Assembly (NCBI GenBank): GCA_051294905.1
Contig: CM119371.1
Span: 40,798,001 to 40,862,000 of the forward strand
Direction of reading: 5' to 3'
DNA: 64,000 nt
Source of the DNA: Botryllus schlosseri
Lineage: Eukaryota
Below, one piece after another: positions 6,628 to 38,900 of the stretch. Both the position numbers and the translations under genes were made by a program. Below the pieces are notes generated by a model. The model did no database searches and had not been told where the DNA came from. It worked only from the letters and a program-made list of their open reading frames with translations. Positions within the stretch are counted from its first letter, which is position 1; the number at the start of each line of letters is the position of its first letter.

Positions 6628-8070
6628 ATATAACACTATGAGAAGGTGACGATTACCTGTTCAAAAACTGCACGTAGGGACGATCGATATTGTGGTGTTA
6701 AAGGTATTTGCACACTTTTGCACACAGTGAAACCCAAATTTTTGTTTGAGAACCATTTAGCTAAGCCGACTCTAAGCCTAAACCGATGTTTCACCCTAAC
6801 TCAGTGGTTCCTAACCCTTTTCACACTGTTACCCCCAAGAAGAAAATGACAGGATGTGATTACCTCTTTTCAAAAAATAACAAGTTAAAGCAGGCACTCA
6901 ATTAATTGTAAAACAACACAAAGTGACGTCAGTAGTTATATAGATCGGTCGTGACCTGGCAGGGGCTCTTATGGGTGCAGCGGCGATTCGCCTGGAAACT
7001 CGTGTTGGCATATCGCGCTTTTAGACCCCCCCCTCTCGGTCGCGATTCGCCATGTGTTCTTATGGGTGCGGTCGTGATTCGCCTTTTCGGGTATAGGCCG
7101 CGGTTGTGATTCGCCGTGAAAACTCGTGGTCGTGACTCGCCGTTTTTGCTATAGGCGGTGGCGGTGATTCGCCTGTCGTGTATTCTTACGGGATCTGTGG
7201 TGATTCGCCATGTGTTCTTACGGGCGCGGTCGTGATTCGCACTTTCAGACATCTCTCGCGAGTAGTTATGTAGATCGGTCGTGACCTGGCAGGGGTTCTT
7301 ATGGGCCCGCTCGCACGGTGCCTCGAAACTCGTGTTGGCACGGTGACCCTTTTGACCCCCCCTATCTCTCGCACGGTGCCATTGTGTCTTATGGAGCCTC
7401 TCACACGGTAACCCTTTTCGGTATAGGCATCTCTCACACGGTGCCTCGAAAACTCGTGTTGGTGAGTCGTACTTTCAAGTATAGGCATCTCTCGCACGGT
7501 GCCGTTGTGTCTTATGGAACCTCTCACACGGTAACCCTTTTCGGTATAGGCATCTCTCACACGGTGCCTCGAAAACTCGTGTTGGTGATTCGCCCTTTCG
7601 GGCATCTCTCGCGCGGTGTTGAATATGTACGAGTCACCAACAATAACCGCGCAAACGGAAACGTGGTTTGTCGTGAGGATTAAGCAGTGCGTGCGACCTA
7701 TATTTCGAATGACCTGTGCGCTGAATTATTTCTCGTCCAGCCGCTACTATCGATTATTACACTATTCCATTCAGTGCGAAATAGTTTGATCGTAAATTAT
7801 GATATATGATGTCGTAGTTTAGTCGTATCAAATGACCGATCGTGTTCTCTCTTTCCTCGCTATTGATTGCTACCTGAATAATATTTTCGGTTTATTCACT
7901 GTTTCGCGCCTACAAAATAGTCTGCTGTTCATAGTCACAGATTCATCGCGATAGCACAATTTTCACACCTCGATCAGTAGAACAACACCGCGCTAACCCA
8001 GTTGTCGAATCACATAGGTCATACATTTACGTGAAATGAAATATTGTATTGCGATATACAAATATGCAAA

Positions 8071-8706
8071 CTATTCTTTCAATTCGACAAGTCTAGTTAA
8101 CTGATCGATTTTCAATCTGCCGACACAGTTTTTAACACGAGTGAGTTGATATTTCTTCCCGGGTACGAGCGAGGCTTTGTTCCATTGATCCAAAACCACC
8201 TCACCAGTATCATCCTTCAATGTAAAACTGTGTAATTTCAACTCCTTTCCGGCACCAGAATTGACCATCTTCTCCTCTCGAGAAACACAAGTAGCGGCGA
8301 TCGAGACGTATTCATCTTTATTTCCGTATACCGATTCACAGGTCAATAATGGGTATTCTTCAGTCGTATGTCTCGATTTTCCATGTAGAGTTACTGACGA
8401 AGCCCGTCCCAGTAATACAGCGGGTTTTCCAGTAAATTTATCAATTTGAACCCAACCGGATTTGACCATGAGTTTTTTTCGTTTGGTGAATGCTTTCTCA
8501 ATGTTCCCGAACAAATCACGATTGAAACACGTGAAAGATATCTCTTCGTTATTGCCATCGATGAATATACCTTTGAGATATTGGCTAACGCCACCTCTTT
8601 TGGGTGATGAGACGAATTTGACGCCGACGTGAAAATTTGAAGTTGCTCCGACTTGCATAGTGTTGACGCTGTTCGATGTCATATCGTTTGATAAAGTGGG
8701 AGTCAT
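8071..8706 (-). CDS. Tandem OB-fold protein, RPA/SSB-like (element B, left arm, intact)
   Basis: 211 aa. IDGNNEEISFTCFN and LKDDTGEVVLDQWN resemble the D-x-[ST]G-x-I-x-x-T-x-[FW] turn of RPA-type OB folds. Near-identical to 21280-21915. Confidence 0.7.
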   Translation of the reverse strand: MTPTLSNDMTSNSVNTMQVGATSNFHVGVKFVSSPKRGGVSQYLKGIFIDGNNEEISFTCFNRDLFGNIEKAFTKRKKLMVKSGWVQIDKFTGKPAVLLGRASSVTLHGKSRHTTEEYPLLTCESVYGNKDEYVSIAATCVSREEKMVNSGAGKELKLHSFTLKDDTGEVVLDQWNKASLVPGKKYQLTRVKNCVGRLKIDQLTRLVELKE

Positions 8707-8762
8707 CAGTGTAACTCACTACACAAATCAAGTTGAATCGTATTTGAATGTATTGATTCGAC

Positions 8763-9275
8763 TAGGGCTGGGCACAATGATTCGAGTACTCGAATCTGAA
8801 TCGAGTATTAATTTTAATGATTCGAGTCGAGTAGTAAAAGACGATTTTTCGAGTACTGAAATTATACGCTCCTCACCACTGAAAGTTGATTTATCAACGA
8901 TCAACGAGTTTATGCTAATTTCACTGTTGAAGCCTTGAAGCCTTGGTTGGCCGTATCGTAGCATGCGAAACATGAATTACAAAGCTACGAACGTTACTGG
9001 AAATAGCACATTTCCGAAGTCATGATCATCCCACAATATTGTCACCAAGTGCAATGAAATCGGTATGGTCGAAAAAAATAACAAAGTATCCCTAATATGA
9101 TGGATAACAGGCATTATATTCTTTGTGGTCGCTTAAAAGGTACATATTTGAACTTTGACAAATAATATTCTGATATGACGTCATAATGAGTGATACTCGA
9201 TTACTCGACTCGACTCGAAGCATTTTACGTGATTCAGAATCGAATCACTCAGGTACTCGATTTTGCCCAGCCCTA
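8763..9275. mobile_element. 513-bp hAT-like MITE, left arm of B only
   Basis: TIR TAGGGCTGGGCA. 8-bp TSD GATTCGAC at 8755-8762 and 9276-9283. Empty site at 20023-20030. A second family copy lies at 50590-51103. Confidence 0.92.
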
Positions 9276-12200
9276 GATTCGACCCAACTCAAATCCTATT
9301 AACGCGATCTGTTGAATCGAACGTAACCTGAATATTACTGACGCCAACATTCACCCTCATCGGATCATTCACACATTCCACGCCGCTGTTTTAACACTTA
9401 TAGAATCAATACCAACTATCTCTGACCCGATATTATTCAATCATTTTGGTAATTTGCCAACTTTAAATCCATTCGCGGGATGTACTAAAGGTAAATCCAA
9501 ATAATCCAGAATGAAATATTTGGACTTTGACATTGCGTGAATTGAAATAGGTTTGACAAACATGACTACCAACTTTGATCCAGCCACATTTCAAACTCAA
9601 AAGAATTATTCACAACATTAACAATTGTTAAAAATCTAGTTTCACTTACTTGATTATATCATTACAACTCACAAATTTGAATTAATTCATCCTGGTTGTA
9701 TTCGTATGCTCTATCTTTTTATTCAATTGTAAAGGTAGTTACTATTTTGAAGACAAAGTATTTACTAATCGGCGCATATACGATTTGACTTGGACATTTT
9801 ATATTTTGAGTATACGAGATTTGAATGTCTGAACAATAACTGAGAATTAATTTATCACAAATAAATCCGTATATTACAGCGTAAAAGATATTGGGGTGTC
9901 AGCAACTCTGTACGGTCGTAGTTACAACCACATTAACTAATCTACCCAGGCAACTCGTCATGATCATTCCTGAAATCAACACAAACACGACCACTGACTT
10001 GAGTTAACCGCGAAATACCATCAAGTTTTAAATCCGCTTGCAGCTGACGGATTATTCGAATGCATCGATGGGGAATATTATTGAACTCGTCGGTATTGTT
10101 ACTTCAACAAATTACACCGACTGCGAAAGTTAATATCGAATGGTAAGACTTGATCACATATTTGTTGATCACAGACATGACGAAAAAACATTACCGAGAT
10201 TTTATAAACTAGTCATATTACTCTACACATCTATCAATATCAAAATGCGAGTCATCCAATTTTTCTACTAAAGTAACATTGCACTTTCGGATTCGAATTC
10301 GGTATAGTCACACAAATTGTATTAAATCCAACATCAAAACAAAAGGAATTTTTTAGTTTATTGAAATCAAATCATTCGTCTTCGACTTGTGCTTTTCTAG
10401 ATTACCCGCGACAATTCGTTTCGAGTGAGTTGTAACCAAAGTCAAGATATCTTTGTGTCCACAGATATGGAAGATGAATATAGCTAACACAATCACGAAT
10501 CGACGTTTCAGAGTATTTCACGGTGTAATAAACTTGTTAGTGTCACCTATCTAAAAGTACGCACGCGTTCGATTTCCATACCGACTGTTGCGATGTTTAG
10601 GATTCACTTACAATAACCACGGGTGAGGATTTAACATCAATGTCGTTACTGTCGGAATTCGCGACAGAGAATTGAAACATATGCACTTTACAGAGTGTGA
10701 AAATATCACTTTGAGTATCGAGTACCGTTCGAAGCTAGCGATAAATTCTTAATCATTTCAGTAACTCCCCATTGTGCGTGCTAAATGTAAAATATCGCAA
10801 GGTTATACACTCTAAGACTTTGATTATCGTAAAAGTAAATTGTGATATGTTTGTTAGATGCATCCAATTCAACTAGAAGTGTCTAGTATCCAACACTCGT
10901 AATATCAAAAAAGTACTTGCTACACTGTTATTTGCTAAACGTGTTTTGCATTGTTGTTCATTTCTAGTATTGATTGAAATTGTTTTTGAACCCTCAAATA
11001 ATAATTCCCGACATGAAACTAAGCCGCCGAAAGTCGTTACCATCACAAAGAAACAATTTGCACGATGTTTACTAAATGTATCCTATAGTTAGGTGTACTG
11101 GAATTATTTGTAAAACACACACACACACACACACACACGATCAGAGAAATTGGAAATTTTTCCGTTGTCATTCGCTAAAGTAAATGTCATCACAATACTC
11201 TGTCACTAAAAGACGTTACTTGGACGTGCTTGAATTCTAGACATAGTTCTGATTTACCCAACACAAGACCCAAGGACAACCCTATTTCAGCCGAACACAG
11301 ATATCCAAAATATCACACACTTCGCTATTCCTAAAGCACAAACACACGATACAAAATAATACTTGTTGTGTTGTTGCGGCATCATCACTCAACAATATCA
11401 CCCTCAATACAAATGATGTTTATGTGTAACATGCTATTGATTTGAACCACACCCACCTGACGGAAGAGGATTTACTCAATCTTTACAAAACGGATATTGA
11501 CCAACATCACATCACCGGATTGTATCTGTTTCGCTGGATACGAGTTATGTTAGTTTAACAGTAAACAAATTTCACCCTCTTGGATTATGAACTCAATGCG
11601 TTAGCAGTCATTCAATATTTTGTTTGTGTCAACTAGTTACTTGGTATGTTACTCCACAACTCTTACAAAAGTACGAAGGATATTAACATCGCATTAAGTA
11701 ATTAACTTTACTCGATATTCTCGCATTACGAAACTAAAGAATGGTTGGTTAGACTCTACAAACTGTTTCGATATCACAAGACCTTTATTGTCTGAATGGG
11801 TGTTCATGTGTCTTAAGAACCAAATAGTTCAACACAGCACTAGTACCAACAGAAACATCAGAGTTGTTTACACAAAAGTTTGTATGCGTGCAGTATGCGA
11901 ATACCATGTGTAAGTCCAGCACAATTGTGGTATCCATCCGGGTTTAGTTAACACAATTTACGACACCGAGGTCACCACATCTTTCGTAAGACAACAAACC
12001 AACCAAGGTTTCAGGATATGTCCGTGTCATAGCAATAAATCAGCTACTCCAACAACAGAGTACATATGTTTTCTAGTTACGGCGCTTACATCTTACACAC
12101 AAATCAATCTACTTTGCTAACAAAAAGTGCTGGGTCATCAAGTGATTACCCTAACAACAAAACAGCTAAACGTACTATCATACAAAATGGCCGTTATAGT

Positions 12201-12859
12201 CACCAACGGTACATGGTACAAGTAACAAGTCTCGAGAATCCAGTTATTGAAAAAACATGAAAGTGTTTCTCCTGCGCCAAGTCGTTATGTTGACGAAAGC
12301 GTATATTGTAATATCATGATCGATTTGCATTCGTTGGTCACAAAATGTCACTACTCTAAATAATTATTTTTCACTCAAACACAAACGCATACTTGTCGCC
12401 AATCGTTTTCATCAAGCACGAGTTCAAGAAACCTGCTACGACATGAATTGTTATTTTTTTATGTTGTGTAAATAGGTAATAATTAATTTTAGTAACACTA
12501 TATCAACATCATCTAGTTGCGCGAATAGATTTACACGTGGTCTTGTGGTTTTAATCGAAGTACACAGCGCGGTCTAACGCGGAGTCATCTCTATTGTACA
12601 GCAACTCGGAAATCGAAATGCATGCATTAACATTTAAACAGCGATCGTGTTTCGTCACGCGAAAAATATGTTCACCACCGCGATACTCTGCACAGGGCGT
12701 GCAAATCCTTTTCACACTCGTAATAGTATACCAACGGCTACCGGCGACAACGTTTAACAATACCAACGACACTAAACATACGATACCTACCCAAGTAAAA
12801 TTTCCATTTTCACCTGGAGGTCAGCCGTTACCTGACTAAAAATACCATTGTCCATTGGA

Positions 12860-13610
12860 GATTTATCGTTTACCCAGTGTAACAATCCCCTTTTCACTTG
12901 GAAATATATTTTTGACCTGGATAACAAACCCCTTTTCACTTGGAAATCTATTTTTGCCCTGTATAACAAACCTTTTTCACTTGGAAATATATTTTTTCTC
13001 TTGGTAACAAACCTTTTTCACTTGGAAATATATTTTTTCTCTGGGTAACAAACCCCTTTTCCTTTGGAAATCTATTTTTTCTCTGGGTAACAAACCTTTT
13101 TCACTTGGAAATATATTTTTTCTCTGGTTAACAAACCTTTTTCACTTGGAAATATATTTTTTCTCTGGGTAACAAACCCCTTTTCCTTTGGAAATCTATT
13201 TTTTCTCTGGATAACAAACCTTTTTCACTTGGAAATATATTTTTTCTCTGGCTAACAAACCTTTTTCACTTGGAAATATATTTTTTCTCTTGGTAACAAA
13301 CCTTTTTCACTTGGAAATATATTTTTTCTCTGGTTAACAAACCTTTTTCACTTGGAAATATATTTTTTCTCTGGTTAACAAACCTTTTTCACTTGGAAAT
13401 ATATTTTTTCCCCGGGTAACAAACCTTTTTCCCTGAGCAACAAACCATTTTCACTTGGTGGTCCGTCGTTTACCCGAGTAAAAATATCATTTTCCTTTAG
13501 AGATCCGGCGTTTACCCAGTGTAACAATACATTTCCACTTGGAAATCTGTCATTTACCTGAGTACCAATACCGTTTCACTTGGAAATCTATCATTTTCCT
13601 GGGTAACAAT
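12860..13610 (+). repeat. 41-bp minisatellite in the left arm of B
   Basis: Unit AACAAACCTTTTTCACTTGGAAATATATTTTTTCTCTGG(G/T)T, period 41 (13081 to 13122), degenerate at the edges. Confidence 0.9.
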
Positions 13611-13773
13611 ACCATTTTCGTTTTGAAAACTAACCACCACACCGGGTCAATTTGATATTTTTGGATATTGTTACAACGGACAGTGACAACATTTACACCA
13701 ACAGCGACTCCGATACATTTGTGTAATCGCATTTTCACTTGTTCTGGTGCATCCCATCAAAATCGACGGTTAG

Positions 13774-13806
<33 letters not shown>

Positions 13807-15499
13807 AACAACGCGCTATTTCGATATGACTGCAATGTCCGGATTCGTGCTTTAGATTTTCCAGAATCAATCCGTCTAAAGTTGTAATCCCCCCGACTTT
13901 GTTAACTGGTTGATACACGGATAACAATCTTCGGAAAATGTAGGAAGCATGCTACCCATCGTGCGCACGATTCCAGGTTACTTGTGATTAATTTCCTTGC
14001 TCACACTATACAGATTATACGTACAGGGATATGTAGCGGTAATCGGTTTGGTCAATACATATCGCCCCATCCAGTATGGAATTACAAACCCAATGCAGGC
14101 CAGTTCATAACCGGATCCGGATATTCAATGCAAAGCGATAAAGCAGAACCAATGAACAAATGTAATTAAACATATAGATTCACAACCCTTGATTTTTTTT
14201 TTCGTGAAAAATGACAACACATGTCGAATATACTTTACGATTGTTCAACCCTACCAAGTACTCACGTAAATGTGGTTTATGACATTACATACAATGTGTC
14301 GGTGTACAAATGTTGGGTGTTTATGCACACATCGGTATGACCCATAGACAACATCATCATACCCTCTAGGACTTCAGTCAACTACCATTGGTCTCTCGAT
14401 ACAGCGAACGATACAGTATGCAACACATATCATTAGAGTGATATATCCACAGGTAAATATGGGGACTGGCCACAATAATTGTATCGAGATTTAACCGAGA
14501 TTACTATCCGTTCACTGATTCACTCGATGGTTTTAGCAACTTGAAACATCACAAGATAGACACGACTCGAATTACTAATATTCACAATGTTTATAAGTGT
14601 CGTTACTGATCGCGCACTAAGTCTATATGAATATTCGAAAAATCGGGTATCGCTACTCTCAACACCAGTGATTCGGTTTAAGTTTGAAATCGATTTGGTA
14701 ATGTAATCCAAAATGGTGTGTTTCTGCGGGATCTGTTAACCTTTACAAGAGAGTGCTGTCTCTTTGACGCATGAAACAATTATTATCAACCACACCTTGC
14801 GTGCATCGATTTGTCGGCGTCGTACAATTATTGTGGCCAGTCCCCATATTTACCTGTGGATATATCACTCTAATGATATGTGTTGCATACTGTATCGTTC
14901 GCTGTATCGAGAGACCAATGGTAGTTGACTGAAGTCCTGGAGGGTATGATGATGTTGTCTATGGGTCATACCGATGTGTGCATAAACACCCAACATTTGT
15001 ACACCGACACATTGTATGTAATGTCATAAACCACATTTACGTGAGTACTTGGTAGGGTTGAACAATCGTAAAGTATATTCGACATGTGTTGTCATTTTTC
15101 ACGAAAAAAAAAATCAAGGGTTGTGAATCTATATGTTTAATTACATTTGTTCATTGGTTCTGCTTTATCGCTTTGCATTGAATATCCGGATCCGGTTATG
15201 AACTGGCCTGCATTGGGTTTGTAATTCCATACTGGATGGGGCGATATGTATTGACCAAACCGATTACCGCTACATATCCCTGTACGTATAATCTGTATAG
15301 TGTGAGCAAGGAAATTAATCACAAGTAACCTGGAATCGTGCGCACGATGGGTAGCATGCTTCCTACATTTTCCGAAGATTGTTATCCGTGTATCAACCAG
15401 TTAACAAAGTCGGGGGGATTACAACTTTAGACGGATTGATTCTGGAAAATCTAAAGCACGAATCCGGACATTGCAGTCATATCGAAATAGCGCGTTGTT

Positions 15500-15532
<33 letters not shown>

Positions 15533-15695
15533 CTAACCGTCGATTTTGATGGGATGCACCAGAACAAGTGAAAATGCGATTACACAAATGTATCGGAGTC
15601 GCTGTTGGTGTAAATGTTGTCACTGTCCGTTGTAACAATATCCAAAAATATCAAATTGACCCGGTGTGGTGGTTAGTTTTCAAAACGAAAATGGT

Positions 15696-16446
15696 ATTGT
15701 TACCCAGGAAAATGATAGATTTCCAAGTGAAACGGTATTGGTACTCAGGTAAATGACAGATTTCCAAGTGGAAATGTATTGTTACACTGGGTAAACGCCG
15801 GATCTCTAAAGGAAAATGATATTTTTACTCGGGTAAACGACGGACCACCAAGTGAAAATGGTTTGTTGCTCAGGGAAAAAGGTTTGTTACCCGGGGAAAA
15901 AATATATTTCCAAGTGAAAAAGGTTTGTTAACCAGAGAAAAAATATATTTCCAAGTGAAAAAGGTTTGTTAACCAGAGAAAAAATATATTTCCAAGTGAA
16001 AAAGGTTTGTTACCAAGAGAAAAAATATATTTCCAAGTGAAAAAGGTTTGTTAGCCAGAGAAAAAATATATTTCCAAGTGAAAAAGGTTTGTTATCCAGA
16101 GAAAAAATAGATTTCCAAAGGAAAAGGGGTTTGTTACCCAGAGAAAAAATATATTTCCAAGTGAAAAAGGTTTGTTAACCAGAGAAAAAATATATTTCCA
16201 AGTGAGAAAGGTTTGTTACCCAGAGAAAAAATAGATTTCCAAAGGAAAAGGGGTTTGTTACCCAGAGAAAAAATATATTTCCAAGTGAAAAAGGTTTGTT
16301 ACCAAGAGAAAAAATATATTTCCAAGTGAAAAAGGTTTGTTATACAGGGCAAAAATAGATTTCCAAGTGAAAAGGGGTTTGTTATCCAGGTCAAAAATAT
16401 ATTTCCAAGTGAAAAGGGGATTGTTACACTGGGTAAACGATAAATC
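15696..16446 (-). repeat. 41-bp minisatellite, mirror copy
   Basis: Reverse complement of 12860-13610. Confidence 0.9.
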
Positions 16447-21274: not shown

Positions 21275-21279
21275 GCAAA

Positions 21280-21915: not shown

Positions 21916-22053
21916 CAACAAACCCGTCGATATTTATAGAATTAGGCACGTTGTATTGAGTGAGTTAACAGTCTTTGTATAATCCTGATGACCCGCGTGA
22001 ATAGACTTGGATTGAAATAAACTTTACAGGAGTTCTGTAAGAAAGGATGCCGT

Positions 22054-22778: not shown

Positions 22779-22789
22779 TATATAAATAG
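22779..22789 (+). promoter_or_regulatory. Putative TATA box
   Basis: TATATAAATAG ~90 bp upstream of ATG 22870, directly after an internal copy of a TIR segment. Confidence 0.5.
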
Positions 22790-22869
22790 CCAACACCGCG
22801 ATCTGATTGTTATACTTCGCTGTCGCAGACATAAACGTTGGTTGGAGCAGTTAGATTAATTATTGTACA

Positions 22870-28549: not shown

Positions 28550-29161
28550 ATGATGGAATTGATCCACCCATTCGCGTGTATTGTGAGTGGTCCTTCAAGA
28601 AGTGGGAAGACTACTTTTGTTGCAAAGCTGATTAGACATGCGACATCCATGATTAAACCTAGTGTGTCCAGGGTCGTATATTGTTACAATAATTATCAGG
28701 AGGTTTTCAAGACGATGCATAACGTAGAATTCCACGCTGGTCTAGATATTTTAGAAGAGTTGAAGGCTTGCTCTGAAGACACCTTGATTATAGTGGATGA
28801 TTTCATGACTGAGACAGCGAAAATTGCAGACTACTTTACAAGATTTTCACATCATTCGGCCAAGTCAATTTGCTATAGCACGCAGAACCTGTACCACAAG
28901 GGTAAAGGGGCACGTGACTTGAGTCTTTCAAGCTCGTATATGGTGATTTTCAAGAATCCGCGCGACCAACAACAGATCAGTTTTCTTGGTCGACAAATGT
29001 ACCCAAACTCTAGATTTTTAACAGAGGCTTATCGTGACGCTGCTAGACAACCTCATAGTTATTTATTCCTTGATCTCACGCAAGAAGCACCTGAAAATCG
29101 ACGAGTTATGACCAATATATTTCCTGGTGAAACCATGGTGGTTTATAGCCCGATGGTATAA
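28550..29161 (+). CDS. A32/FtsK-like DNA packaging ATPase
   Basis: HPF...GPSRSGKTT Walker A, LIIVDD Walker B, HH, TQNLY, FKNPRD, PHSYLFLDL. TATATAAA at 28507. Confidence 0.93.
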   Translation: MMELIHPFACIVSGPSRSGKTTFVAKLIRHATSMIKPSVSRVVYCYNNYQEVFKTMHNVEFHAGLDILEELKACSEDTLIIVDDFMTETAKIADYFTRFSHHSAKSICYSTQNLYHKGKGARDLSLSSSYMVIFKNPRDQQQISFLGRQMYPNSRFLTEAYRDAARQPHSYLFLDLTQEAPENRRVMTNIFPGETMVVYSPMV

Positions 29162-29194
29162 ATAGCCAAGCGCAGAGACGACTTTAAACTCAAA

Positions 29195-29542
29195 ATGACC
29201 AAGGTACCAGCTCGGACACGGCGGCATATTCCCACACTGGAGTTCCTACATAAAAGTAAACCCGAGATACGCAAGCAAATTATATCGGGAGCCAGCAAAG
29301 AATTGATCGAGTGTATATGCGATTGTACAAAGAACATTTTAAATGGTAACATCCCTCTTTCAAAGTATAAAAGAAAGCGACTATCAGCTCATAAATGTAG
29401 TTTACGTCGACTTGTCAGGAAAGACATCCCTATTCGACATAAGAAACGTATGGTTAACCAGCATGGGGGTATGTTTATGACTCTATTATCAAGCATCCTA
29501 CCCGTCGTCACTGGTTTACTCGGTAATCTTTTCAAAAAATGA
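29195..29542 (+). CDS. Conserved small basic Polinton virion protein with QxGG motif and C-terminal amphipathic helix
   Basis: ICDCTKNILNGNIPL...KKRMVNQHGG-MFMTLLSSILPVVTGLL; position after the ATPase is typical. Confidence 0.8.
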   Translation: MTKVPARTRRHIPTLEFLHKSKPEIRKQIISGASKELIECICDCTKNILNGNIPLSKYKRKRLSAHKCSLRRLVRKDIPIRHKKRMVNQHGGMFMTLLSSILPVVTGLLGNLFKK

Positions 29543-29934
29543 CTTCTTTTAAAAAAATCTTCATAAATCCGAGCCCGATCAACGGAGCTGACGTTCAGAA
29601 ATTGAATTTGGATATCGACAAATGTATGAGCGACATATTACAGATGAACATACCCCAAGAACGAAAATTAGCCTTATATAACGACGCACTAAATCGTTAT
29701 CAAACAAAACACGACACACTGAATCAACCGATGAAAATCGATATATCAGAACAAAGGAATCTATTTTCGGCAAGTGAGTTGGACGCACTGCGACGCCTGA
29801 TCAAGGGTGAACCATCAAGGATTCCTATACCATCGCCGAGTAGCCAACGAAGCAAAGTAAAGACTCAGCATGCCAAGACGAAAAGCGGTCGTACACCCAA
29901 GACCCCGAGACGATACGGATGGGAGCCATACTAA
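29539..29934 (+). CDS. 131-aa Polinton protein upstream of the integrase
   Basis: LDIDKCMSDIL...ERKLALYNDALNRY and terminal WEPY; ATGA overlap with the upstream ORF. Confidence 0.75.
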   Translation: MTSFKKIFINPSPINGADVQKLNLDIDKCMSDILQMNIPQERKLALYNDALNRYQTKHDTLNQPMKIDISEQRNLFSASELDALRRLIKGEPSRIPIPSPSSQRSKVKTQHAKTKSGRTPKTPRRYGWEPY

Positions 29935-30940
29935 GTATTTCACGCCAGGGCTACCCGGTAGTTATCGCGGTGCATACGTATTCTCTAGAGGGCGGAATAG
30001 AGCCAAAGTCAAGGAGTTTCTTTCGAGCAAGGACGCGTACACAAAACATTTTCCCTATCGAAAGAAATTTAAGAGACCTAGAGTGATTACGTCCGGTCTC
30101 GGTGTTCAGTATCAAACCGATCTCATGCATATGCAAAATCTTTCAGAAGAAAACGATAATTTTAAATATGTGTTGGTGACGATCGATTGTTTCAGCCGAT
30201 TTTTATATCTGTATCCACTCAAAAACAAAACCTCGCAAGGTATTATTCGTGGATTCAAGGAAATATTTAAGGATCGTATACCTCATGTTATTCAAAGTGA
30301 TCAAGGTTCTGAGTTTACTAATCGTGCGTTTCAGACTTTCTTAAAAGAGAACAATGTGCGACATTTTCATACAAATAGTGAACTGAAAGCATCGATATGC
30401 GAGCGTGTTATTCGTACTGTGAAGCAAGTGTTATACCGGTATTTCACGCATAATAAGACTTTGAATTATGTCAGTGTCCTGTCTGAGATATGCCGGGGGT
30501 ATAACACTACTTTTCACGTTGCTATAGGGTGTCCTCCAGCGGATGTTGATTATTCAAATCAAGAACAAATTTTCCATAGGTTATACGGTGACATGACCCC
30601 TAAAAAACCCAAACTAACTATCGGCACACCGGTCAGGATTTCGAAATCACGTGGTAATTTTGTAAAAAGTGCCTTGGCGAGTTGGACCGAAGAAATCTTT
30701 TTCGTATCTCAATGTCGTAAAGGTGACCCTCCTACTTATCAATTGAAAGACTACCATGGTGAAGTTATAGACGGTCGCTTTCAGCGTGAAGAGTTACAAC
30801 CAATAACTAAAAATAATAATATTTACAATATCGAGAAAATCCTGTCTACTCGCAGGAAAGGAAAGAAAACGCAATATTTTGTAAAATGGTTGGGTTACCC
30901 ATCTACATTTAATTCCTGGGTCTCGGATTTGTATAAATAG
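29870..30940 (+). CDS. Retroviral-like (rve) DDE integrase with C-terminal chromodomain
   Basis: YQTDL, IDCFSR, QSDQGSEF and ICERVIRT give an intact D-D-E triad. IEKIL...YFVKWLGYPSTFNSWV is a chromodomain. Start uncertain. Confidence 0.95.
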   Translation: MPRRKAVVHPRPRDDTDGSHTKYFTPGLPGSYRGAYVFSRGRNRAKVKEFLSSKDAYTKHFPYRKKFKRPRVITSGLGVQYQTDLMHMQNLSEENDNFKYVLVTIDCFSRFLYLYPLKNKTSQGIIRGFKEIFKDRIPHVIQSDQGSEFTNRAFQTFLKENNVRHFHTNSELKASICERVIRTVKQVLYRYFTHNKTLNYVSVLSEICRGYNTTFHVAIGCPPADVDYSNQEQIFHRLYGDMTPKKPKLTIGTPVRISKSRGNFVKSALASWTEEIFFVSQCRKGDPPTYQLKDYHGEVIDGRFQREELQPITKNNNIYNIEKILSTRRKGKKTQYFVKWLGYPSTFNSWVSDLYK

Positions 30941-30949
30941 ACGCTGAAA

Positions 30950-31183
30950 ATGTTGTTCAACCAAACTATGGATTCTGATTCCGGCTCATCTCGCATGGGT
31001 CAAGTCTCGAACAGTCTGAAAAACCAGATTGTGTTTATTGTACAGATTTGTATGTTAGTGTGTGTAATCGTGTTTTCCTTATATCAAATTTCTGTCGGGG
31101 TGGATCGTGAGATATATTTAACGCTACTGTCTTCTTCACTTGGGTATTTATTACCGAATCCATCACCTCACCGTATATGTTGA
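30950..31183 (+). CDS. Small two-TM membrane protein
   Basis: Hydrophobic IVFIVQICMLVCVIVFSL and IYLTLLSSSLGYLLPNP, between integrase and penton as in many Polintons. Confidence 0.7.
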   Translation: MLFNQTMDSDSGSSRMGQVSNSLKNQIVFIVQICMLVCVIVFSLYQISVGVDREIYLTLLSSSLGYLLPNPSPHRIC

Positions 31184-31196
31184 AAGAAACAATAAA

Positions 31197-32027
31197 ATGT
31201 TGTTGACTTTACCTTCTAATGCGAGTTTGGATAAATTTCCGAATACTAGCACAGATTTTCAAACGGAACTTTACAAAGAATTAGAAATGAATCGCCATGA
31301 GCTAGGATTATGTGAGCTGACCTTCCCCCATGATTTCCAACCACGAATTGAAGTGACAGCGAAAAGTATCGGTTTTGGATTTGTCGATGCGAATGGATAC
31401 ACCGAACGGTATTATATTCCCGAAGGTTCGTATTACAGCATCGGTGAAATGTTAGAATCGTACGAGAAATATTACATGGGGGACATTTTCATTTTACAAG
31501 GATTCGGTGACTTTAGAATCACATTCAGAAGATTAGTCACGAGTAAAAAAAGACACAAGCGGGGTGTACCCATAAATACCGATACCGCAGACTCTAGCGT
31601 CAAACACATACCCCGTACCACGCATGATTCACCCGAGCCTTACGGACTGATACCGCTTGGTTCTGTGTTGGACACAATAACATTTAGACGCGTTGTATCT
31701 CGTCGCCGCGGAGTGGTAGAATTTATATTTACACCCGCGATAAAGTTGGAACGGATTGATAAGGTTTATGTGTATTGCGATCTGATACAACCAAGACCAC
31801 ATGGTAACAAGCTGCAACAACTTTTACGGGTGGTTACTGTAACCGCTAAACCGAATGAAAACCAAATCAACATATTCCCAAAACCATACTTCTTTGCTTT
31901 AGCGAGAAACAATTTTAGAACGATACGAATTTATCTACGTGATGCAGCTGGCAACCCTATTAAATTTCGAAAAGCACCAGTGACAGTAACCCTACGCTTC
32001 CGTCGTAGAGCTGTTGATTCAATATGA
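31197..32027 (+). CDS. Minor capsid protein (penton), paralogue 1
   Basis: LTLPSNAS..FPNT..F; VYVYCDLI...G...LLRVV; PYF; IRIYLRD..G.PI.F; VTLRFRR. Confidence 0.9.
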   Translation: MLLTLPSNASLDKFPNTSTDFQTELYKELEMNRHELGLCELTFPHDFQPRIEVTAKSIGFGFVDANGYTERYYIPEGSYYSIGEMLESYEKYYMGDIFILQGFGDFRITFRRLVTSKKRHKRGVPINTDTADSSVKHIPRTTHDSPEPYGLIPLGSVLDTITFRRVVSRRRGVVEFIFTPAIKLERIDKVYVYCDLIQPRPHGNKLQQLLRVVTVTAKPNENQINIFPKPYFFALARNNFRTIRIYLRDAAGNPIKFRKAPVTVTLRFRRRAVDSI

Positions 32028-32695
32028 GTTACATCACGTTGTCTGGCACCCAAGGTGAATTCTCGGTGGTGTTACCGAATGAAATTATTTGTAATGAGCT
32101 TGCGTTGATGGATATGAGTTTTGTCAGTGAATCTCTTGATCGAATTATAATCAATCGTGATCAAGCACTCTGGGAGCTACATAATGAGAAAGATCGAATA
32201 GTAGAAGCGTACCTAACACCACTTGGGAATTATGCAAACAACCTCGAGTTGACGCGAAGAATATTATCTGACAGTTTCAAACACTGTTTCACCGAAAGAA
32301 TCAACGATGAACTTTTCCGAATTCGTTACTCGAAACGTATCACACTCCACCCCACGGATATATTCACGAATTATTTCAGTGTAGTTGATCAAGTGTCGAC
32401 ACCAGTATGTAATGTCACGTCGATCAAACCTAAACCAACTCAACCCCACCTCAGATATCTTTTTGTGTATATCAATGTACTACGACATCATCCGGTGGGT
32501 GATTACATGAGTCAATTGCTTCGTGTGATCCAAGTAAATAACGAGACGTGTATGAGACAAGAAGTTGTATATGAAAAACCGTTTTATTTCCCAGTATCGA
32601 TTAACCACATCCGCGATATAAAAATCACCATCCGGGATCAATACGGTCAGTTAGTACATGATATAGAGACCACATTGACACTCCACGCACGATGA
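32024..32695 (+). CDS. Minor capsid protein (penton), paralogue 2
   Basis: LFVYINVL..HPVGD....LLRVI; PFYFPV; IKITIRDQYG; TLTLH. Confidence 0.85.
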   Translation: MSYITLSGTQGEFSVVLPNEIICNELALMDMSFVSESLDRIIINRDQALWELHNEKDRIVEAYLTPLGNYANNLELTRRILSDSFKHCFTERINDELFRIRYSKRITLHPTDIFTNYFSVVDQVSTPVCNVTSIKPKPTQPHLRYLFVYINVLRHHPVGDYMSQLLRVIQVNNETCMRQEVVYEKPFYFPVSINHIRDIKITIRDQYGQLVHDIETTLTLHAR

Positions 32696-33087
32696 AAATA
32701 GTGACGTTAACCACCTCTATGCTTGGTGTTGATTTTGAACACAGACTACTCACCATCAACAACATCCCGACAAGATATTGTGAATTAGCCCTCATGGAGA
32801 TCGATTTCACTTTAACCGAACCGGCGATTGGTCAATATTTGTTTGTGTATTGCGATATTATTCACCCTCACTTACTTGGAGATGTGTTAGCGCGTTTATT
32901 ACGAGTTATACCGCTGACACCTGGTGATGTCACGCATAATTGGGTAGCGACAAATCCGTATTATTTCCCTGTTTCAAAAGATGTTGTAGATTCTGTATGT
33001 CTTTACCTCAGGGATGAGTTTGGGGAACCTATAAATATAATAAGTCGTTCATTGCAAGCTACATTTAACATTAGGAAGCGATTATGA
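32692..33087 (+). CDS. Minor capsid protein (penton), paralogue 3, minimal 131 aa
   Basis: ELALMEIDF directly followed by YLFVYCDII.PHLLGD..ARLLRVI; NPYYFPV; LYLRDEFGEPI. Confidence 0.85.
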   Translation: MKIVTLTTSMLGVDFEHRLLTINNIPTRYCELALMEIDFTLTEPAIGQYLFVYCDIIHPHLLGDVLARLLRVIPLTPGDVTHNWVATNPYYFPVSKDVVDSVCLYLRDEFGEPINIISRSLQATFNIRKRL

Positions 33088-33455
33088 AAGTTGTTTTCAC
33101 GTGTGATCATCATTCTGTCCATCGTCATTATAACCAGACAGGTGATGGTTATGGATATTTTAGCGGTGGAGTTCAAGCCGGTTCCGGTATTGGGAGTTTG
33201 TTTAAATCACTCGGTCGTTTAGTGACACCTATTGCGAAATACGCCGGCGGTCAATTGTTACGGACTGGAGGTGAAATAGCGAGAGATCTATTACGGGGTA
33301 ACTCGATCAAGTCTAGTGTTGTCAAGAGAAGTAAACAAGCTGGCGGTCGAGTGATTGATAAAATTTTAACCCCAAAAGCTATAAAAAGGAAAAAAACAAA
33401 GTCAAAGAACACTTCATCCAAACGTCGTCGTAAACAACAGGATATATTCGACTAA
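33084..33455 (+). CDS. Gly-rich/basic Polinton core (membrane-lytic-type) protein
   Basis: YNQTGDG...F.GG.QAGSGIGSLFKSLGRLVTP, basic tail, DIF terminus; immediately upstream of the MCP. Confidence 0.8.
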   Translation: MKVVFTCDHHSVHRHYNQTGDGYGYFSGGVQAGSGIGSLFKSLGRLVTPIAKYAGGQLLRTGGEIARDLLRGNSIKSSVVKRSKQAGGRVIDKILTPKAIKRKKTKSKNTSSKRRRKQQDIFD

Positions 33456-33460
33456 GAACT

Positions 33461-34732
33461 ATGTTGATGCACGCGGGTTCCCGAGAATGTCATAACTCCG
33501 GATTAAACATATTTAGTATACCCCACACGCAAACCAGTATTGAGGAATCGCAATATGTCGTCGTCAAACCCCATAGTTTAGGTAATGTCATGGAAGTACA
33601 ATTACCAAGGACGGATCGATATATGGATCTACAAAACACGTTCTTGAGATTACGTTTGAAGCTCACTAAACGCGATGGAACTGATTTAGCAAACGATACA
33701 CAAGTGGGTCTTGTCAATAACATGATGGATTCTCTTTTCAAACAAATCGATGTAACTATTTCAAATGAGGTTATCACAAATTCGGATAATTGTCATGCCT
33801 ACAAAGCTTATATCTCTCGGTTGTTGAATGATACTCATGGTGCCTCGGAGAGTTTTGTGCAAGGACAAGGTTTTTATAAAGATGTCGCTGGCTCTATGGA
33901 TGTTCTTGGTGCAGCGAATACTGGATATGTTAAACGAAAAGACCTTACCAAAAACAGCACCCCGCTAGAGTTGATCGGAAAAATTCGAATGGGTCTTTTT
34001 GAACAGTCTAGATGTATGTTGGATAATGTCGACATGAAATTAAAATTTACACGTAACGAAGATAATTTCTGTCTGCTCGGTGACGTGGAGGATGTACAAA
34101 TTGTTTTACTCGAAATGGAGGTGTATGTCAAACAGATGAAGATCGCTGAAAGTGTAAGCTTAGCACACAAGTCTGTATTACAGAAGAATACTGCCAAGTA
34201 CCCCTGGATACGCTTACAAATGTCGACTCATACATTCGCGGCTGGTTTATCGAAAATTGATAGAGAGTTAGTTAGCGGCACCATGCCAAAGAAGATCGTA
34301 ATTGGTTTAGTTGAGACCACGACATTTAACGGTGTTCGAGCCAAAAATCCATTCAACTTTAAACACTTTGATGTTCAAAATCTTTCGTTAAGTGTGGACG
34401 GGCGACAAATTAACGGACGCGAATTTCATTTCGATTTTGATAAACACGGCGGACTCGAAGGTTATATGACACTATTCTCTCAGACAGGTCGCTGGGAATC
34501 CGAGACACCTTTAAATATTTCACGCAAAGATTATGTTAATGGATACACTCTTTTTGTGTTTGATTTGACACCTGATAATAGTTTGGGATGTTATCAACTT
34601 CATAAGACGGGAACTGTGCATCTGGTTTTGACTACATCGAAGCCTTTACCAACCTCCGTAACCTTGTTATGTTTGAAGGAGTTTCAACATCTTCTACAAC
34701 TGAATCAAAAAAGACAAGTCGTCGAAATATGA
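33461..34732 (+). CDS. Double jelly-roll major capsid protein
   Basis: LNIFSIPHTQTSI, YMDLQNT, VNN..DSLFKQIDV, YKAYI..LLN, PKKIVIGLV, NPFNFKHFD, GYTLFVFDLTPD. Confidence 0.93.
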   Translation: MLMHAGSRECHNSGLNIFSIPHTQTSIEESQYVVVKPHSLGNVMEVQLPRTDRYMDLQNTFLRLRLKLTKRDGTDLANDTQVGLVNNMMDSLFKQIDVTISNEVITNSDNCHAYKAYISRLLNDTHGASESFVQGQGFYKDVAGSMDVLGAANTGYVKRKDLTKNSTPLELIGKIRMGLFEQSRCMLDNVDMKLKFTRNEDNFCLLGDVEDVQIVLLEMEVYVKQMKIAESVSLAHKSVLQKNTAKYPWIRLQMSTHTFAAGLSKIDRELVSGTMPKKIVIGLVETTTFNGVRAKNPFNFKHFDVQNLSLSVDGRQINGREFHFDFDKHGGLEGYMTLFSQTGRWESETPLNISRKDYVNGYTLFVFDLTPDNSLGCYQLHKTGTVHLVLTTSKPLPTSVTLLCLKEFQHLLQLNQKRQVVEI

Positions 34733-35172
34733 ATACGTCTGAGATCAATGATATTCTCTATAACCACCCTGACACACAAAGTCTATATCTAGGAACTTAT
34801 CCAGTAGATCAGCTACCGAAGAAACCAACTAGCGGAAAATTCGCTATCACCATTAATTACGATGAGTCGAGTTTGCCTGGGTCTCACTGGGTGTCTATAT
34901 ACAGAGATGACGATACTCATTTTCATGATTCGCTAGGCTTCGGACCACTAAAACCTCAGATAATCGAATTCCTGGAGCCGGATGAATTTTCAGTGACTGG
35001 GAAACAGTTACAGAGTAAAACTTCAGATGTGTGTGGAGATCATGCTATCGCATTCTTGATAAAAAGAGCTCAAGGGTTTTCAACCGAGGAATACTTGGAT
35101 AATTTTGGCGATGATAAAAAAGTGAATGATACGATTGTACGTGTTTTTGTGAAGAGTTTGATTTCAGAGTAA
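34729..35172 (+). CDS. Adenain/Ulp1-like cysteine maturation protease
   Basis: INYD...PGSHWV, FHDSLG and LQSKTSDVCG give a His-Asp-Cys triad plus Gln. ATG overlaps the MCP stop; AATAAA at the stop. Confidence 0.92.
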   Translation: MNTSEINDILYNHPDTQSLYLGTYPVDQLPKKPTSGKFAITINYDESSLPGSHWVSIYRDDDTHFHDSLGFGPLKPQIIEFLEPDEFSVTGKQLQSKTSDVCGDHAIAFLIKRAQGFSTEEYLDNFGDDKKVNDTIVRVFVKSLISE

Positions 35173-35973
35173 TAAACGAATGTGTAAATGTATATACTTG
35201 TGATTCTTGTTGCGCCTGTGAACAGCAGATTATTTTGTAGGCGCGAAACAGCGAATAAACCGAAAGTATTATTCAGCTAGCAATCAATAGCGAGGAAAGA
35301 GAACACGATCGGTCATTTGACACGATTAAACTACGACATCGTATATCATAATTTACGATCAAACTATTTCACACTGACCGGTCTAGTGTAATAATCGATA
35401 GTAGCGACTGGACGAGAAATAAGTCAGCGCGCAGGTCATTCGAAATATAGGTCGCACGCGTAATCCTCACAACAAACCACGTTTCCGTCCGCGCGGTTAT
35501 TGTTGGTGACTCGTACATATTCAACACCACGCGAGGGATGTCTATACTCGAAAGTACGAATCATCGCCGCGTCCATAAGAATAACGATATGTCATTGTCG
35601 CACTCACCGTAATTTGGAATATACACATTAACTAAAGACCAATCACATGACTATTTACTTGATACATATTCAACACCGTGCCGCCGCGCCTATACCCACA
35701 ACGTTAGTCAAATCATCTCTCCTGAAAGGTCACCATGTCACCGCGCCTATACCTGAAAAGGTAACCATGTCACCACGAGTTTTCGCGGCACCGTGCCGCC
35801 GCAGCCTATACCCGAAAAAGTAACCGTGCCACCCCCGCCATAAGACACAATGGCACCGTGCCACCCCCGCCATAAGATATAAGGGTCACCGTGCCACCCC
35901 CGGTTTTCTCGGCACCGTGCCACCCCGCCCATAAGAACCCTATAGCCGCATGCGAGCGATCGACTATACTACT
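34859..35973 (-). repeat. Right TIR of element C (1115 bp)
   Basis: Mirror of 20160-21274. Confidence 0.95.
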
Positions 35974-38900
35974 CACGTCGGCGTCAAATTCGTCTCATCA
36001 CCCAAAAGAGGTGGCGTTAGCCAATATCTCAAAGGTATATTCATCGATGGCAATAACGAAGAGATATCTTTCACGTGTTTCAATCGTGATTTGTTCGGGA
36101 ACATTGAGAAAGCATTCACCAAACGAAAAAAACTCATGGTCAAATCCGGTTGGGTTCAAATTGATAAATTTACTGGAAAACCCGCTGTATTACTGGGACG
36201 GGCTTCGTCAGTAACTCTACATGGAAAATCGAGACATACGACTGAAGAATACCCATTATTGACCTGTGAATCGGTATACGGAAATAAAGATGAATACGTC
36301 TCGATCGCCGCTACTTGTGTTTCTCGAGAGGAGAAGATGGTCAATTCTGGTGCCGGAAAGGAGTTGAAATTACACAGTTTTACATTGAAGGATGATACTG
36401 GTGAGGTGGTTTTGGATCAATGGAACAAAGCCTCGCTCGTACCCGGGAAGAAATATCAACTCACTCGTGTTAAAAACTGTGTCGGCAGATTGAAAATCGA
36501 TCAGTTAACTAGACTTGTCGAATTGAAAGAATAGTTTGCATATTTGTATATCGCAATACAATATTTCATTTCACGTAAATGTATGACCTATGTGATTCGA
36601 CAACTGGGTTAGCGCGGTGTTGTTCTACTGATCGAGGTGTGAAAATTGTGCTATCGCGATGAATCTGTGACTATGAACAGCAGACTATTTTGTAGGCGCG
36701 AAACAGTGAATAAACCGAAAATATTATTCAGGTAGCAATCAATAGCGAGGAAAGAGAGAACACGATCGGTCATTTGATACGACTAAACTACGACATCATA
36801 TATCATAATTTACGATCAAACTATTTCGCACTGAATGGAATAGTGTAATAATCGATAGTAGCGGCTGGACGAGAAATAATTCAGCGCACAGGTCATTCGA
36901 AATATAGGTCGCACGCACTGCTTAATCCTCACGACAAACCACGTTTCCGTTTGCGCGGTTATTGTTGGTGACTCGTACATATTCAACACCGCGCGAGAGA
37001 TGCCCGAAAGGGCGAATCACCAACACGAGTTTTCGAGGCACCGTGTGAGAGATGCCTATACCGAAAAGGGTTACCGTGTGAGAGGTTCCATAAGACACAA
37101 CGGCACCGTGCGAGAGATGCCTATACTTGAAAGTACGACTCACCAACACGAGTTTTCGAGGCACCGTGTGAGAGATGCCTATACCGAAAAGGGTTACCGT
37201 GTGAGAGGCTCCATAAGACACAATGGCACCGTGCGAGAGATAGGGGGGGTCAAAAGGGTCACCGTGCCAACACGAGTTTCGAGGCACCGTGCGAGCGGGC
37301 CCATAAGAACCCCTGCCAGGTCACGACCGATCTACATAACTACTCTCGCGTGGTGTTGAATATGTACGAGTCACCAACAATAACCGCGCAAACGGAAACG
37401 CTGTTTGTTGTGAGGATTACGCAGTGCGTGCGACCTATCCGAGACATTATCTTGTCAGCGATCGCGGGGTTTTGCAAACTATTTCACACATTTTTGAAGT
37501 GTTAGTTTGTGAATGCGGTTATTGCTGATATTCGAATCGACGTCTACGCCGGCTCTGTGGTAAACTAATTACCAAAATATTACCTTGGAAGTGACTCCTA
37601 GATTTAGCAAACTATTTCGCACTGAATGGAATAGTGTAATAATCGATAGTAGCACGCGGTTGGCCGTGAAACAATTCAGCGCGCAGGTCATTCGAAATAT
37701 AGGTCGCACGCACTGCGTAATCCTCACAACAAACAGCGTTTCCGTTTGCGCGGTTATTGTTGGTGACTCGTACATATTCAACACCACGCGAGAGATGTCT
37801 GAAAGTGCGAATCACGACCGCGCCCGTAAGAACACATGGCGAATCACCACAGATCCCGTAAGAATACACGACAGGCGAATCACCGCCACCGCCTATAGCA
37901 AAAACGGCGAGTCACGACCACGAGTTTTCACGGCGAATCACAACCGCGGCCTATACCCGAAAAGGCGAATCACGACCGCACCCATAAGAACACATGGCAA
38001 ATCGCGACCGAGAGGGGGGGTCTAAAAGCGCGATATGGCAACACGAGTTTCCATGCGAATCGCCGCCGCACCCTTAAGAGCCCCTGCCAGGTCACGACCG
38101 ATCTATATAACTACTGACGTCATAATGTACACTGAAATGCGCGTTAAAAATATCAAGTCAATGGGAAGGCTAATGCTGTTTTTGTGTTATCCATGGTCAC
38201 ATATAGGAAAGGGAATGAGGATAATAATAATCATCTCATACAACTGTCAATCGTAAATATAATATTGATATTTCGTTTTGATGGATACCATTGCAGAAAT
38301 TCTATTTCACAGCAATAAGTTGAATGAAATTCAATCAAAAGTTCAATGCCATTATGACGAAGATTTGTAATTCATTTTGAAGGCGAACCCAAGAGGTTCC
38401 AATATCGTTTCTTCGTTTCCTGGAAGGCCTTCTGATGATGTAAGACCCAATTGGGTGGCCAGACTATAACACTGCACGTTTCAATACTAAAAAACTGTAT
38501 TTTTACGATATTGTTACTGTCTTATAGGTGTTAAGATGAACTTGGACGCCCCTTGTTGTCTTCCAATGGGTAAGAATATATGATCCGCACTACAGCAAAA
38601 TAAATTGGACTTCTAGCACTATACTAAACTACATTTGACCCTTTTATTCATAATCACTATTGGTTCTGGTTACTATGATATCACAGCAGGCATGGTGTGT
38701 TAAGTGAAACAAAAGATATGTAGCCTTCAAGTTCGCAAAAATATATGTTTGCCTGCATTCATATTCACGTTTGAAAATATTTCATTGCGGCGTTATAATA
38801 ATTCATAGGAAAGGTCAATTCCAATTACCCCGAAAATTGGTAAATTACCCATTTTAGGGTAGTTAACCCCAGGTTAACAGCCACTGCTAACTAGTTTTAA

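Follow-up and report, generated by a model that had tools for sequence, protein, structure and literature searches.

A three-level nest of Polinton elements in Botryllus schlosseri: CG-centred insertion and a predicted pseudo-polymerase lineage

Polintons, also known as Mavericks, include non-autonomous forms that have as such already been described. Their ends are reported to read 5'-(AGT)2//(ACT)2-3' (PMC8097293; 10.1101/2023.08.22.554363), and Polinton particles are stated not to have been observed (PMC8097293). Nesting of mobile elements inside integrated virus-like elements, with multi-level nests among the cases, is reported for Ngaro elements in EMALE virophages (PMC8547959) and for retrotransposons in cryptophyte Polinton-like viruses (PLVs) (PMC12220804), and in retroviruses with a 6-bp target site duplication (TSD), pyrimidine-purine (YR) steps are described as enriched and purine-pyrimidine (RY) steps as avoided at the centre of the duplication (PMC4422553). 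Here we analyse a 64,000-nucleotide stretch of contig CM119371.1 of Botryllus schlosseri (assembly GCA_051294905.1, 495.5 Mb; contig positions 40798001-40862000), hereafter the window, in which a Polinton-type element, A, contains a second, B, which in turn contains a third, C. The contig of the window is referred to as C1 and another contig of the same assembly as C2. By what route Polintons move, with or without particles and helpers, is still an open question.

Comparison of the window with itself and inspection of the junctions showed that A (6931-38115) encloses B (7261-37344) and that B encloses C (20160-35973), each of them starting with AGTAGT and ending with ACTACT, that is, with (AGT)2 termini. 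Each is flanked by a perfect 6-bp TSD, and for each the empty site with one copy of the target is preserved within the window (Table 1). Chance is very far from explaining three perfect 6-bp duplications that directly adjoin the same 6-bp end motif and that each have a matching empty allele. Between the two ends or arms of an element there are 5 mismatches plus 1 gap (A, 423 bp), 2 mismatches (B, 6,716 bp) and no mismatch (C, 1,115 bp), which is consistent with A having come first and C last. The nest is real, and so is the order of events, A, then B, then C. An earlier note, made from the letters of the window, had described this nest with its TSDs, had located every pre-insertion state in the window (the tandem copies at 54852/61435, the right terminal inverted repeat (TIR) of A and the left-arm gene of B) and had pointed to a fourth relative ending at 830; all of this holds on inspection, and the fourth relative, identified from upstream DNA as an element of the palindromic family, lies 6.1 kb from A, outside the nest. 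That the arrangement was produced during assembly from long inverted repeats is highly improbable: although 6.7-kb arms at 99.97% identity are hard to assemble and none of the 16 contig pieces listed over 21920-38700 from two contig sets (of about 64,800, all 16 short) spans a junction, four insertions have exact TSDs and matching empty alleles, a 513-bp insert and 2 substitutions set the arms apart, and the same architecture is found at other loci with TSDs of their own.

We consider it fairly probable that the nest as a whole reflects sequential, CG-centred integrase insertions by a large family of helper-dependent elements at a permissive site. As the TSDs, the empty sites and the divergence show, A entered a decaying host tandem unit, B a TIR of A, and C the right arm of B. 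The integrase prefers to centre its 6-bp cut on a pyrimidine-purine step, which is CG in most cases. Nests would then arise from a family that takes up no less than 2.5% of the DNA surveyed and whose TIRs, with about twice the CG density of host DNA, are favoured, while insertions into existing junk may escape removal by selection, such relaxed selection being a possible cause of any excess of nests. All three elements would need a helper in trans, A and B for want of core genes and C for want of catalytic residues in its polymerase; modules are exchanged among elements, and the capsid may constrain the length of satellites. With all empty sites in view, the nest is a clean record of insertion order and would be mostly the product of a large family in a permissive site.

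The target preference can be read from the ends of the whole family. Ends of one terminal type occur 647 times genome-wide (control, 0), a second terminal pattern gives 838 matches against 219 in its control, and our own estimate of the family size is roughly 600-800 elements. The TSD is centred on CG at 313 of the 647 ends of the first type and at 367 ends of the second, and so are all three TSDs of the nest. For a census of 110 elements, built from every listed terminus of C1 and of the first 24.5 Mb of C2 (76 + 34) and counting one end each, the central step is CG in 54, CA/TG in 33, TA in 6 and another in 17; YR steps thus account for 93/110, with AC/GT, GC and AT at 0/110 and a background of 4.4% for CG. 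This preference is plain, and the bendability of the pyrimidine-purine step would be its likely cause by analogy with retroviral integrases, since intasomes that make 6-bp TSDs (ASLV, HERV-K, HTLV-1 and MMTV) reportedly show the same central enrichment of YR and avoidance of RY (PMC4422553). The 6-bp retroviruses are however described there as having the weakest preferences, whereas here YR reaches 85% and CG about half of the sites. EMALE integration is likewise described as lacking sequence specificity (PMC8547959), in contrast to the strong CG-centred choice seen here, and target-sequence preference goes unmentioned in the excerpts of PMC8097293 and 10.1101/2023.08.22.554363 at hand. We found no report of CG-centred Polinton TSDs in literature listings, abstract openings and the passages searched, and supplementary TSD tables could bear on this claim. 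Documented on hundreds of ends, the preference marks the targets of a Polinton integrase and supplies the appropriate null against which to judge claims of self-targeting. CpG density is 93-108 per kb in A, 70-74 in the TIRs, 44 in the flanks and 37 in the inner arms of B, so a CG preference raises the odds of landing in TIRs, only modestly so for whole elements. The idea that CG targeting steers insertions off methylated, CpG-poor genes was dropped, as the genome is not CpG-depleted, CG and GC in AT context being equally common genome-wide (58,952 vs 57,617).

The earlier note had taken the repeated insertion of one family into itself as a sign of self-targeting, and we therefore weighed the number of nests on C1 and part of C2. 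The flanks of the census elements (20 long ones and 90 of 170 bp) were compared with a library of element interiors together with B and C, and were extended in doubtful cases. Left out were 10 of the 73 C1 rows of the second pattern, which have non-terminus letters, the first-type C2 rows beyond 24.5 Mb, and C2:18377123, which was rejected as a nest because it is a duplicated right end with the same flank; at C2:18376102 and 18377123 there are two tandem copies of one right terminus with its flank, separated by 1,021 bp. The flank matches of C1:31848152 and C2:8412056, examined as family DNA, proved to be other repeats. Coverage by census elements is 2.5% of 66.4 Mb, a figure that includes the pair C1:41571999/41602705, although its TSDs differ, with an effect below 0.03 points.

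Eight of the 110 census elements are nested, and 6 of the 107 outside the window (3 firm, 3 probable). The firm nests are B, C, C1:32997234, C1:16774511 and C2:21164103, and the probable ones, whose host ends were only partly found, are C1:24935653, C1:41583322 and C1:37404761; C2:29453751 and C1:16772825-16801530 (TSD AATACC) are nests beyond the census lists. A second three-level nest lies on C1, where 16768420-16810257 contains 16772825-16801530, which contains 16774511-16789166. About 3.1 kb of host flank stands as an inverted duplicate on both sides of its outer element, which has no TSD, and this duplicate suggests a palindrome-driven rearrangement. When sequential insertion was simulated, 1.2-1.4 nests were expected among the 107. 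With 1% of unlisted family DNA the expectation rises to 2.6 (P = 0.05), with 2% to 3.8 (P = 0.19), and with half of the genome closed as well to 5.1 (P = 0.41). The excess is put at 1.6-5 fold depending on the null. The hosts of 4 of the 8 nested elements are absent from the terminus lists; family DNA is therefore under-counted, and a null based on the census alone is too low. Compared like for like, with listed hosts only, 3/107 elements are nested where 1.2-1.4 are expected (P = 0.12-0.16), and the inference of self-targeting is not supported by this census: the count lies above the census-only null, but the like-for-like excess is not significant. Elements also lie close to each other at about 1.6-2 times the random rate (gaps <60 kb, 15 vs 9.4 expected, P = 0.04; gaps <15 kb, 5 vs 2.5, P = 0.10), and in genome-wide models one or more three-level nests arise with a probability of 7-77%.

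Several observations nevertheless weigh against insertion without self-preference. Against the census-only null, 6/107 is improbable (P = 0.001-0.002), and the second three-level nest, which was not selected for, occurs among the same 110 elements (P 0.01-0.10). B took two insertions while its arms gained only 2 mismatches in 6,716 bp, which is fast unless gene conversion keeps the arms alike. Of the 9 nests besides that of B in A, 5 are no more than 1.7 kb away from a host terminus (P = 0.10), as are 4 of the 8 outside the window (P = 0.19), and nests may be under-counted, the flanks of 90/110 elements being only 170 bp long. True self-targeting, in which the integrase would be tethered to family DNA by a chromodomain that reads a mark of silenced copies, or by proteins bound to TIRs, draws on the 8/110 nested elements with their two three-level nests, on the several nests near host termini and on the presence of a chromodomain in the integrase of C. 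We regard it as unlikely, as 102/110 census elements lie outside detectable family DNA and neither the like-for-like excess nor the terminal bias is significant. Where true targeting is reported it is far stronger, 91% of type 1 Ngaros lying inside EMALEs (PMC8547959); the Ngaro is an invader of a different class with targeting of up to 91%, whereas family-in-family insertion here amounts to about 3-7%. A modest family bias of 2-4 fold is possible and strong targeting is absent; self-targeting is unproven and probably weak.

The host DNA around A speaks for a permissive site. The host tandem unit that holds A is decayed and 81-89% identical to its two clean neighbours. Aligned over 4.8 kb, the decayed copy is broken by 10 gaps, A being one of them, and the clean copy by 1 (P = 0.012); 7 of the gaps besides A have 6-9 bp overlaps resembling TSDs. 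B, too, took a hAT-like element. The site accepts insertions of many kinds, about nine of them unrelated. The earlier note had also offered a permissive silencing or piRNA-cluster-like locus; the many unrelated insertions and the clustering of elements favour the permissive locus. A silencing or piRNA-cluster-like trap, positively selected to collect transposons, would accommodate the roughly nine unrelated insertions in the 4.8-kb host unit, the fourth family member 6 kb away and the mild clustering of elements along contigs, but the two neighbouring tandem copies are nearly insertion-free, which fits relaxed selection on one copy better, and we consider such a trap improbable. Among other insertions in the window, one of 577 bp (6049-6625) is palindromic and resembles a miniature inverted-repeat transposable element (MITE), has a short TSD and adjoins A; another of 4.6 kb (39905-44468) carries palindromic repeats rich in GGCCGGCC close to each end (39953-40058, 44220-44431); and a third, of 302 bp, holds a short GGTTA/GGGTTA telomere-like array (49660-49742).

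C, with 15,814 bp, is the sole element of the nest with Polinton core genes and holds all long open reading frames (ORFs). It shares with Polintons the end motif, TIRs within 100-1500 bp, the 6-bp TSD, the 15.8-kb size, an rve integrase, a homologue of the protein-primed family B polymerase (pPolB), a packaging-type ATPase and a double jelly-roll (DJR) capsid protein. The function of the integrase is predicted from its Pfam domains. Residues described as conserved in the figure legends of a nematode study (10.1101/2023.08.22.554363) are however lost from the polymerase of C. The protein was identified through its homologues, of which 34 reach E<=1e-20 and 13 of these 34 contain PF03175; C's polymerase itself has no direct Pfam match. 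Metal-binding catalytic positions are replaced in both the proofreading and the polymerase site, 3 of 9 positions scored by alignment column being affected, and about 95 C-terminal residues are absent; regular-expression patterns, of which 5/7 fail in C, overstated the loss and were not used, and domain borders are approximate. The three positions are kept in all outside homologues that cover them (31/31, 34/34 and 29/29).

This state is shared by related copies in the genome. Among 39 of 379 candidates that were scored, at least 20 copies are 89-100% identical to the polymerase of C and at least 19 are 78-79% identical. The same 3/9 replacements occur in 6/6 sampled copies of the former group and canonical catalytic motifs in 2/2 of the latter, and 8/8 copies from both groups keep a vOTU-type cysteine motif, in a domain proposed to release an N-terminal terminal protein (PMC11161782). 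In a FastTree phylogeny of 13 sequences (8 from this genome and 5 of the 34 homologues), the exonuclease-polymerase part places the six altered copies in a single clade (support 1.0), the N-terminal part being mosaic. They differ from each other at a synonymous divergence (dS) of 0.13-0.31 with pairwise dN/dS of 0.16-0.27, and the catalytically altered domains, pooled over 840 codons, have a ratio of nonsynonymous to synonymous polymorphism (pN/pS) of 0.28 (95% 0.22-0.34). A decaying pseudogene would drift towards 1, and the polymerase would therefore have a job that does without catalysis. Judged by its sequence, the lineage of C is a conserved pseudo-polymerase under purifying selection that has lost its catalytic residues; polymerase activity has probably been lost, with C probably using a helper. 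Several of the altered copies (e.g., C13:14450600-14454200) match in two pieces, residues 1-65 and 143-1194, which suggests that the N-terminal part is a separate ORF.

Intact polymerase and exonuclease residues, as expected of an autonomous Polinton, are wanting in C, and polymerase and integrase genes are wanting in A and B, so none of the three looks autonomous. We give about even odds to a role in which the pseudo-polymerase supplies C's own terminal protein and a scaffold that binds the origin, a helper polymerase carrying out synthesis; the main alternative is that it may act as a decoy that out-competes helpers. The nearest described case is that of the Tlr1-like helicase/pPolB fusions of PLVs and transpovirons, reported to have, as in C, an altered active site with terminal protein and vOTU domain kept (PMC5499653, PMC11161782). 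Those fusions are described as lacking the exonuclease domain and as joined to a superfamily 1 helicase, whereas the pPolB of C is near full-length and unfused, and the palm domains of the helicase-fused 'inactivated' pPolB (PMC5499653) were later predicted to be active (PMC11161782, 2024). Unlike the fusions, the protein of C is altered at both sites and stands beside canonical relatives of 78-79% identity in the same genome. A selected polymerase without catalysis across about 20 mobile copies would imply trans-complementation and a non-catalytic job, and both are open to biochemical testing.

A and B have family termini, TIRs and 6-bp TSDs without core genes, as non-autonomous Polinton derivatives do. 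In a tblastn comparison of the 14 proteins of C with the window, there was no match in A, and B matched only at an ORF with a putative OB fold. Without B, A is 1,095 bp long. Its central deletion junction occurs once in the assembly (<=2 mismatches allowed) and is spanned by none of the element interiors in the comparison library, so A is a single-copy deletion remnant, which may still have offered B a longer stretch to insert into. Membership in a MITE family, which would have several copies of the short form, was rejected on this single find of the junction. At C2:35685329-35685788, a terminus pair 460 bp apart marks another very short derivative resembling A.

B without its two inserts measures 13,743 bp and consists of mirror arms around a 339-bp spacer, with a 211-aa ORF in each arm; the spacer is 0.88-0.98 kb in sampled relatives. 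A palindromic centre is present in 6/6 relatives picked for a length of 13.4-14.1 kb, a 1,179-bp arm probe matches at least 40 places at 98-100% identity on 11 contigs (top 40 listed), and 27 of 73 paired census elements are 13.0-14.2 kb long. These dispersed copies show that the form of B itself moves, and B is a 13.7-kb palindromic satellite from a large young family. The 211-aa ORF has no Pfam match; its Atlas look-alikes with OB-fold families (score 0.93-0.95) are a lead only, its single-sequence fold has a pLDDT of 31, and the homologue search returned one near-identical match. It is found at 98-100% identity in 40/40 listed places (best 40 of 274 candidates). The gene is 98-99% identical whether it comes from palindromic satellites or from gene-bearing elements of either polymerase group, the TIRs that adjoin it are much more variable (72-89% between B and C), and a gene so uniform beside such variable TIRs suggests a recent sweep of the OB-fold module. 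Elements of the hAT type have an 8-bp TSD, short TIRs and a link to a hAT transposase; the 513-bp insertion in the left arm of B shows the first two, which is why we presume it to be a hAT candidate. It is not in the right arm, and its junction is unique in the assembly.

The near-identical OB-fold gene also bears on how C reached B. Entry by homology via this gene was rejected, since at least 40 places have it at 98-99% identity and a TSD of the integrase type flanks the junction. Alternatively, the integrase of C may have used a free B in a nucleus where both were replicating, the 30-kb composite then entering A. The arms of B and the TIRs of C are about equally young, and the OB-fold gene is 98-99% identical across palindromic and gene-bearing elements although polymerases of the latter differ at dS 0.6-0.8; together with the mosaic N-terminal module of the polymerase, this indicates that elements meet and recombine. 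Equal youth is however also expected from two recent chromosomal events, the unique junction of the hAT-like insertion suggests that B spent time in the chromosome, and there is no second composite copy among the matches listed, so that joining outside the chromosome has little probability next to sequential chromosomal insertion. More broadly, it can tentatively be speculated, at less than even odds, that the genome houses, in the manner of a virus accompanied by defective and satellite particles, a tiered Polinton community of canonical-polymerase elements, a long-lived capsid/integrase lineage with a selected pseudo-enzyme, and satellites of about 13.7 kb, as if capsid-limited; these would co-replicate, swap end modules and integrate into each other above chance through a shared replication compartment, of which the nest would be a fossil.

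What is new here is the pseudo-polymerase lineage and the CG-centred target preference, and we found no literature report of either. Nor did we find one of Polinton-in-Polinton nesting rates, of palindromic Polinton satellites or of an unfused, catalytically dead Polinton polymerase, in a search to which the founding papers of 2006-2007 and Repbase entries were external; the excerpts of PMC8097293, 10.1101/2023.08.22.554363, PMC11131425, PMC12220804 and PMC8547959 contain no passage on these topics.

Table 1. Features of the window in and around the nest (window coordinates)
Feature	Position	Strand	Remarks
Right end of fourth, separate family member	1..830	+	junction inspection, upstream DNA
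Decayed copy of 6.6-kb host tandem unit holding A	1275..50546	+	4.8 kb original sequence, 10 gaps
A TSD GACGTC	left copy 6925..6930, right copy 38116..38121	+	perfect 6-bp
A left terminal part (TIR), broken by B	6931..7254	+	CpG 108 per kb
B TSD CTCGCG	left copy 7255..7260, right copy 37345..37350	+	perfect 6-bp
B left arm, palindromic non-autonomous element	7261..14483	+	
211-aa OB-fold-like ORF (probable SSB/RPA-like), intact in B left arm	8071..8706	-	
Empty site of C, one target copy	8626-8631 in B left-arm gene; also 21835-21840 in C's own gene copy		
hAT-like non-autonomous insertion, 513 bp, in B left arm	8763..9275	.	8-bp TSD 8755-8762, 9276-9283
41-bp tandem array in B arm	12879..13619; mirror copy 15687-16427	+	
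B non-palindromic spacer, 339 bp	14484..14822	.	
B right arm, inner part	14823..20153	+	right OB-fold ORF copy begins 20079, split by C
C TSD CACGTC	left copy 20154..20159, right copy 35974..35979	+	perfect 6-bp
C left TIR, 1,115 bp	20160..21274	+	identical to right TIR
C copy of OB-fold ORF	21280..21915	-	98% DNA identity to B copy
117-aa ORF	22054..22407	-	no family match
292-aa ORF	22870..23748	+	no family match
Protein-primed family B polymerase homologue, 1,194 aa	24341..27925	+	open frame
Packaging-type ATPase, 203 aa	28550..29161	+	AAA_14 E 2e-5, Pox_A32 E 0.026 (weak), PHROGs ATPase E 7e-4
Two small ORFs, 115 and 131 aa	29195..29934	+	no family match
Retrovirus-like integrase, C-terminal chromodomain, 356 aa	29870..30940	+	Pfam domains rve (E 4e-16) and Chromo (E 4e-8)
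Three mutually related ORFs, 276, 223, 131 aa	31197..33087	+	mutual tblastn E 1e-8 to 1e-11
Basic ORF, 123 aa	33084..33455	+	no Pfam match
Double jelly-roll major capsid protein, 423 aa	33461..34732	+	model pLDDT 90; Foldseek
ORF, 167 aa	34669..35172	+	no Pfam match; protease motif by eye
C right TIR	34859..35973	+	
B right arm, outer part	35980..37344	+	continues the interrupted OB-fold ORF, to 36534
Rest of A, with the end of its left TIR, the central deletion junction at 37438/37439 and the right TIR	37351..38115	+	
Empty site of B, one target copy	37787-37792		inside A right TIR
Empty site of A, single GACGTC	54852..54857 (clean host tandem copy 1), 61435..61440 (clean copy 2)	+	

Among the remaining genes of C, the model of the 423-aa capsid protein, for which PDB gave no sequence match, resembles in Foldseek the capsids of iridovirus, PBCV-1, Sputnik and mavirus (E to 2e-16). 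The three tandem related ORFs we take to be a probable triplication of a minor capsid protein, as a candidate only; the 123-aa basic ORF is presumably a core protein, and the 167-aa ORF, from a motif judged by eye, presumably an adenain-like protease. The protease and minor capsid candidates had no match in Pfam and PHROGs scans, and the window contains no tRNA genes. RNA reads over 21920-38700 in two runs (513 and 909, mostly partial matches) were not used as evidence, nor was their depth, which is highest over the OB-fold ORF and low over the polymerase; partly matching reads form a local peak at 28080-28639, upstream of the ATPase ORF, in both runs. In the left TIR of C, the final 104 codons of the protease-like ORF recur in inverted orientation at 20964-21275. 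This TIR ends just before the stop codon of the OB-fold ORF, so that it would have grown by copying of the right end up to an essential gene.

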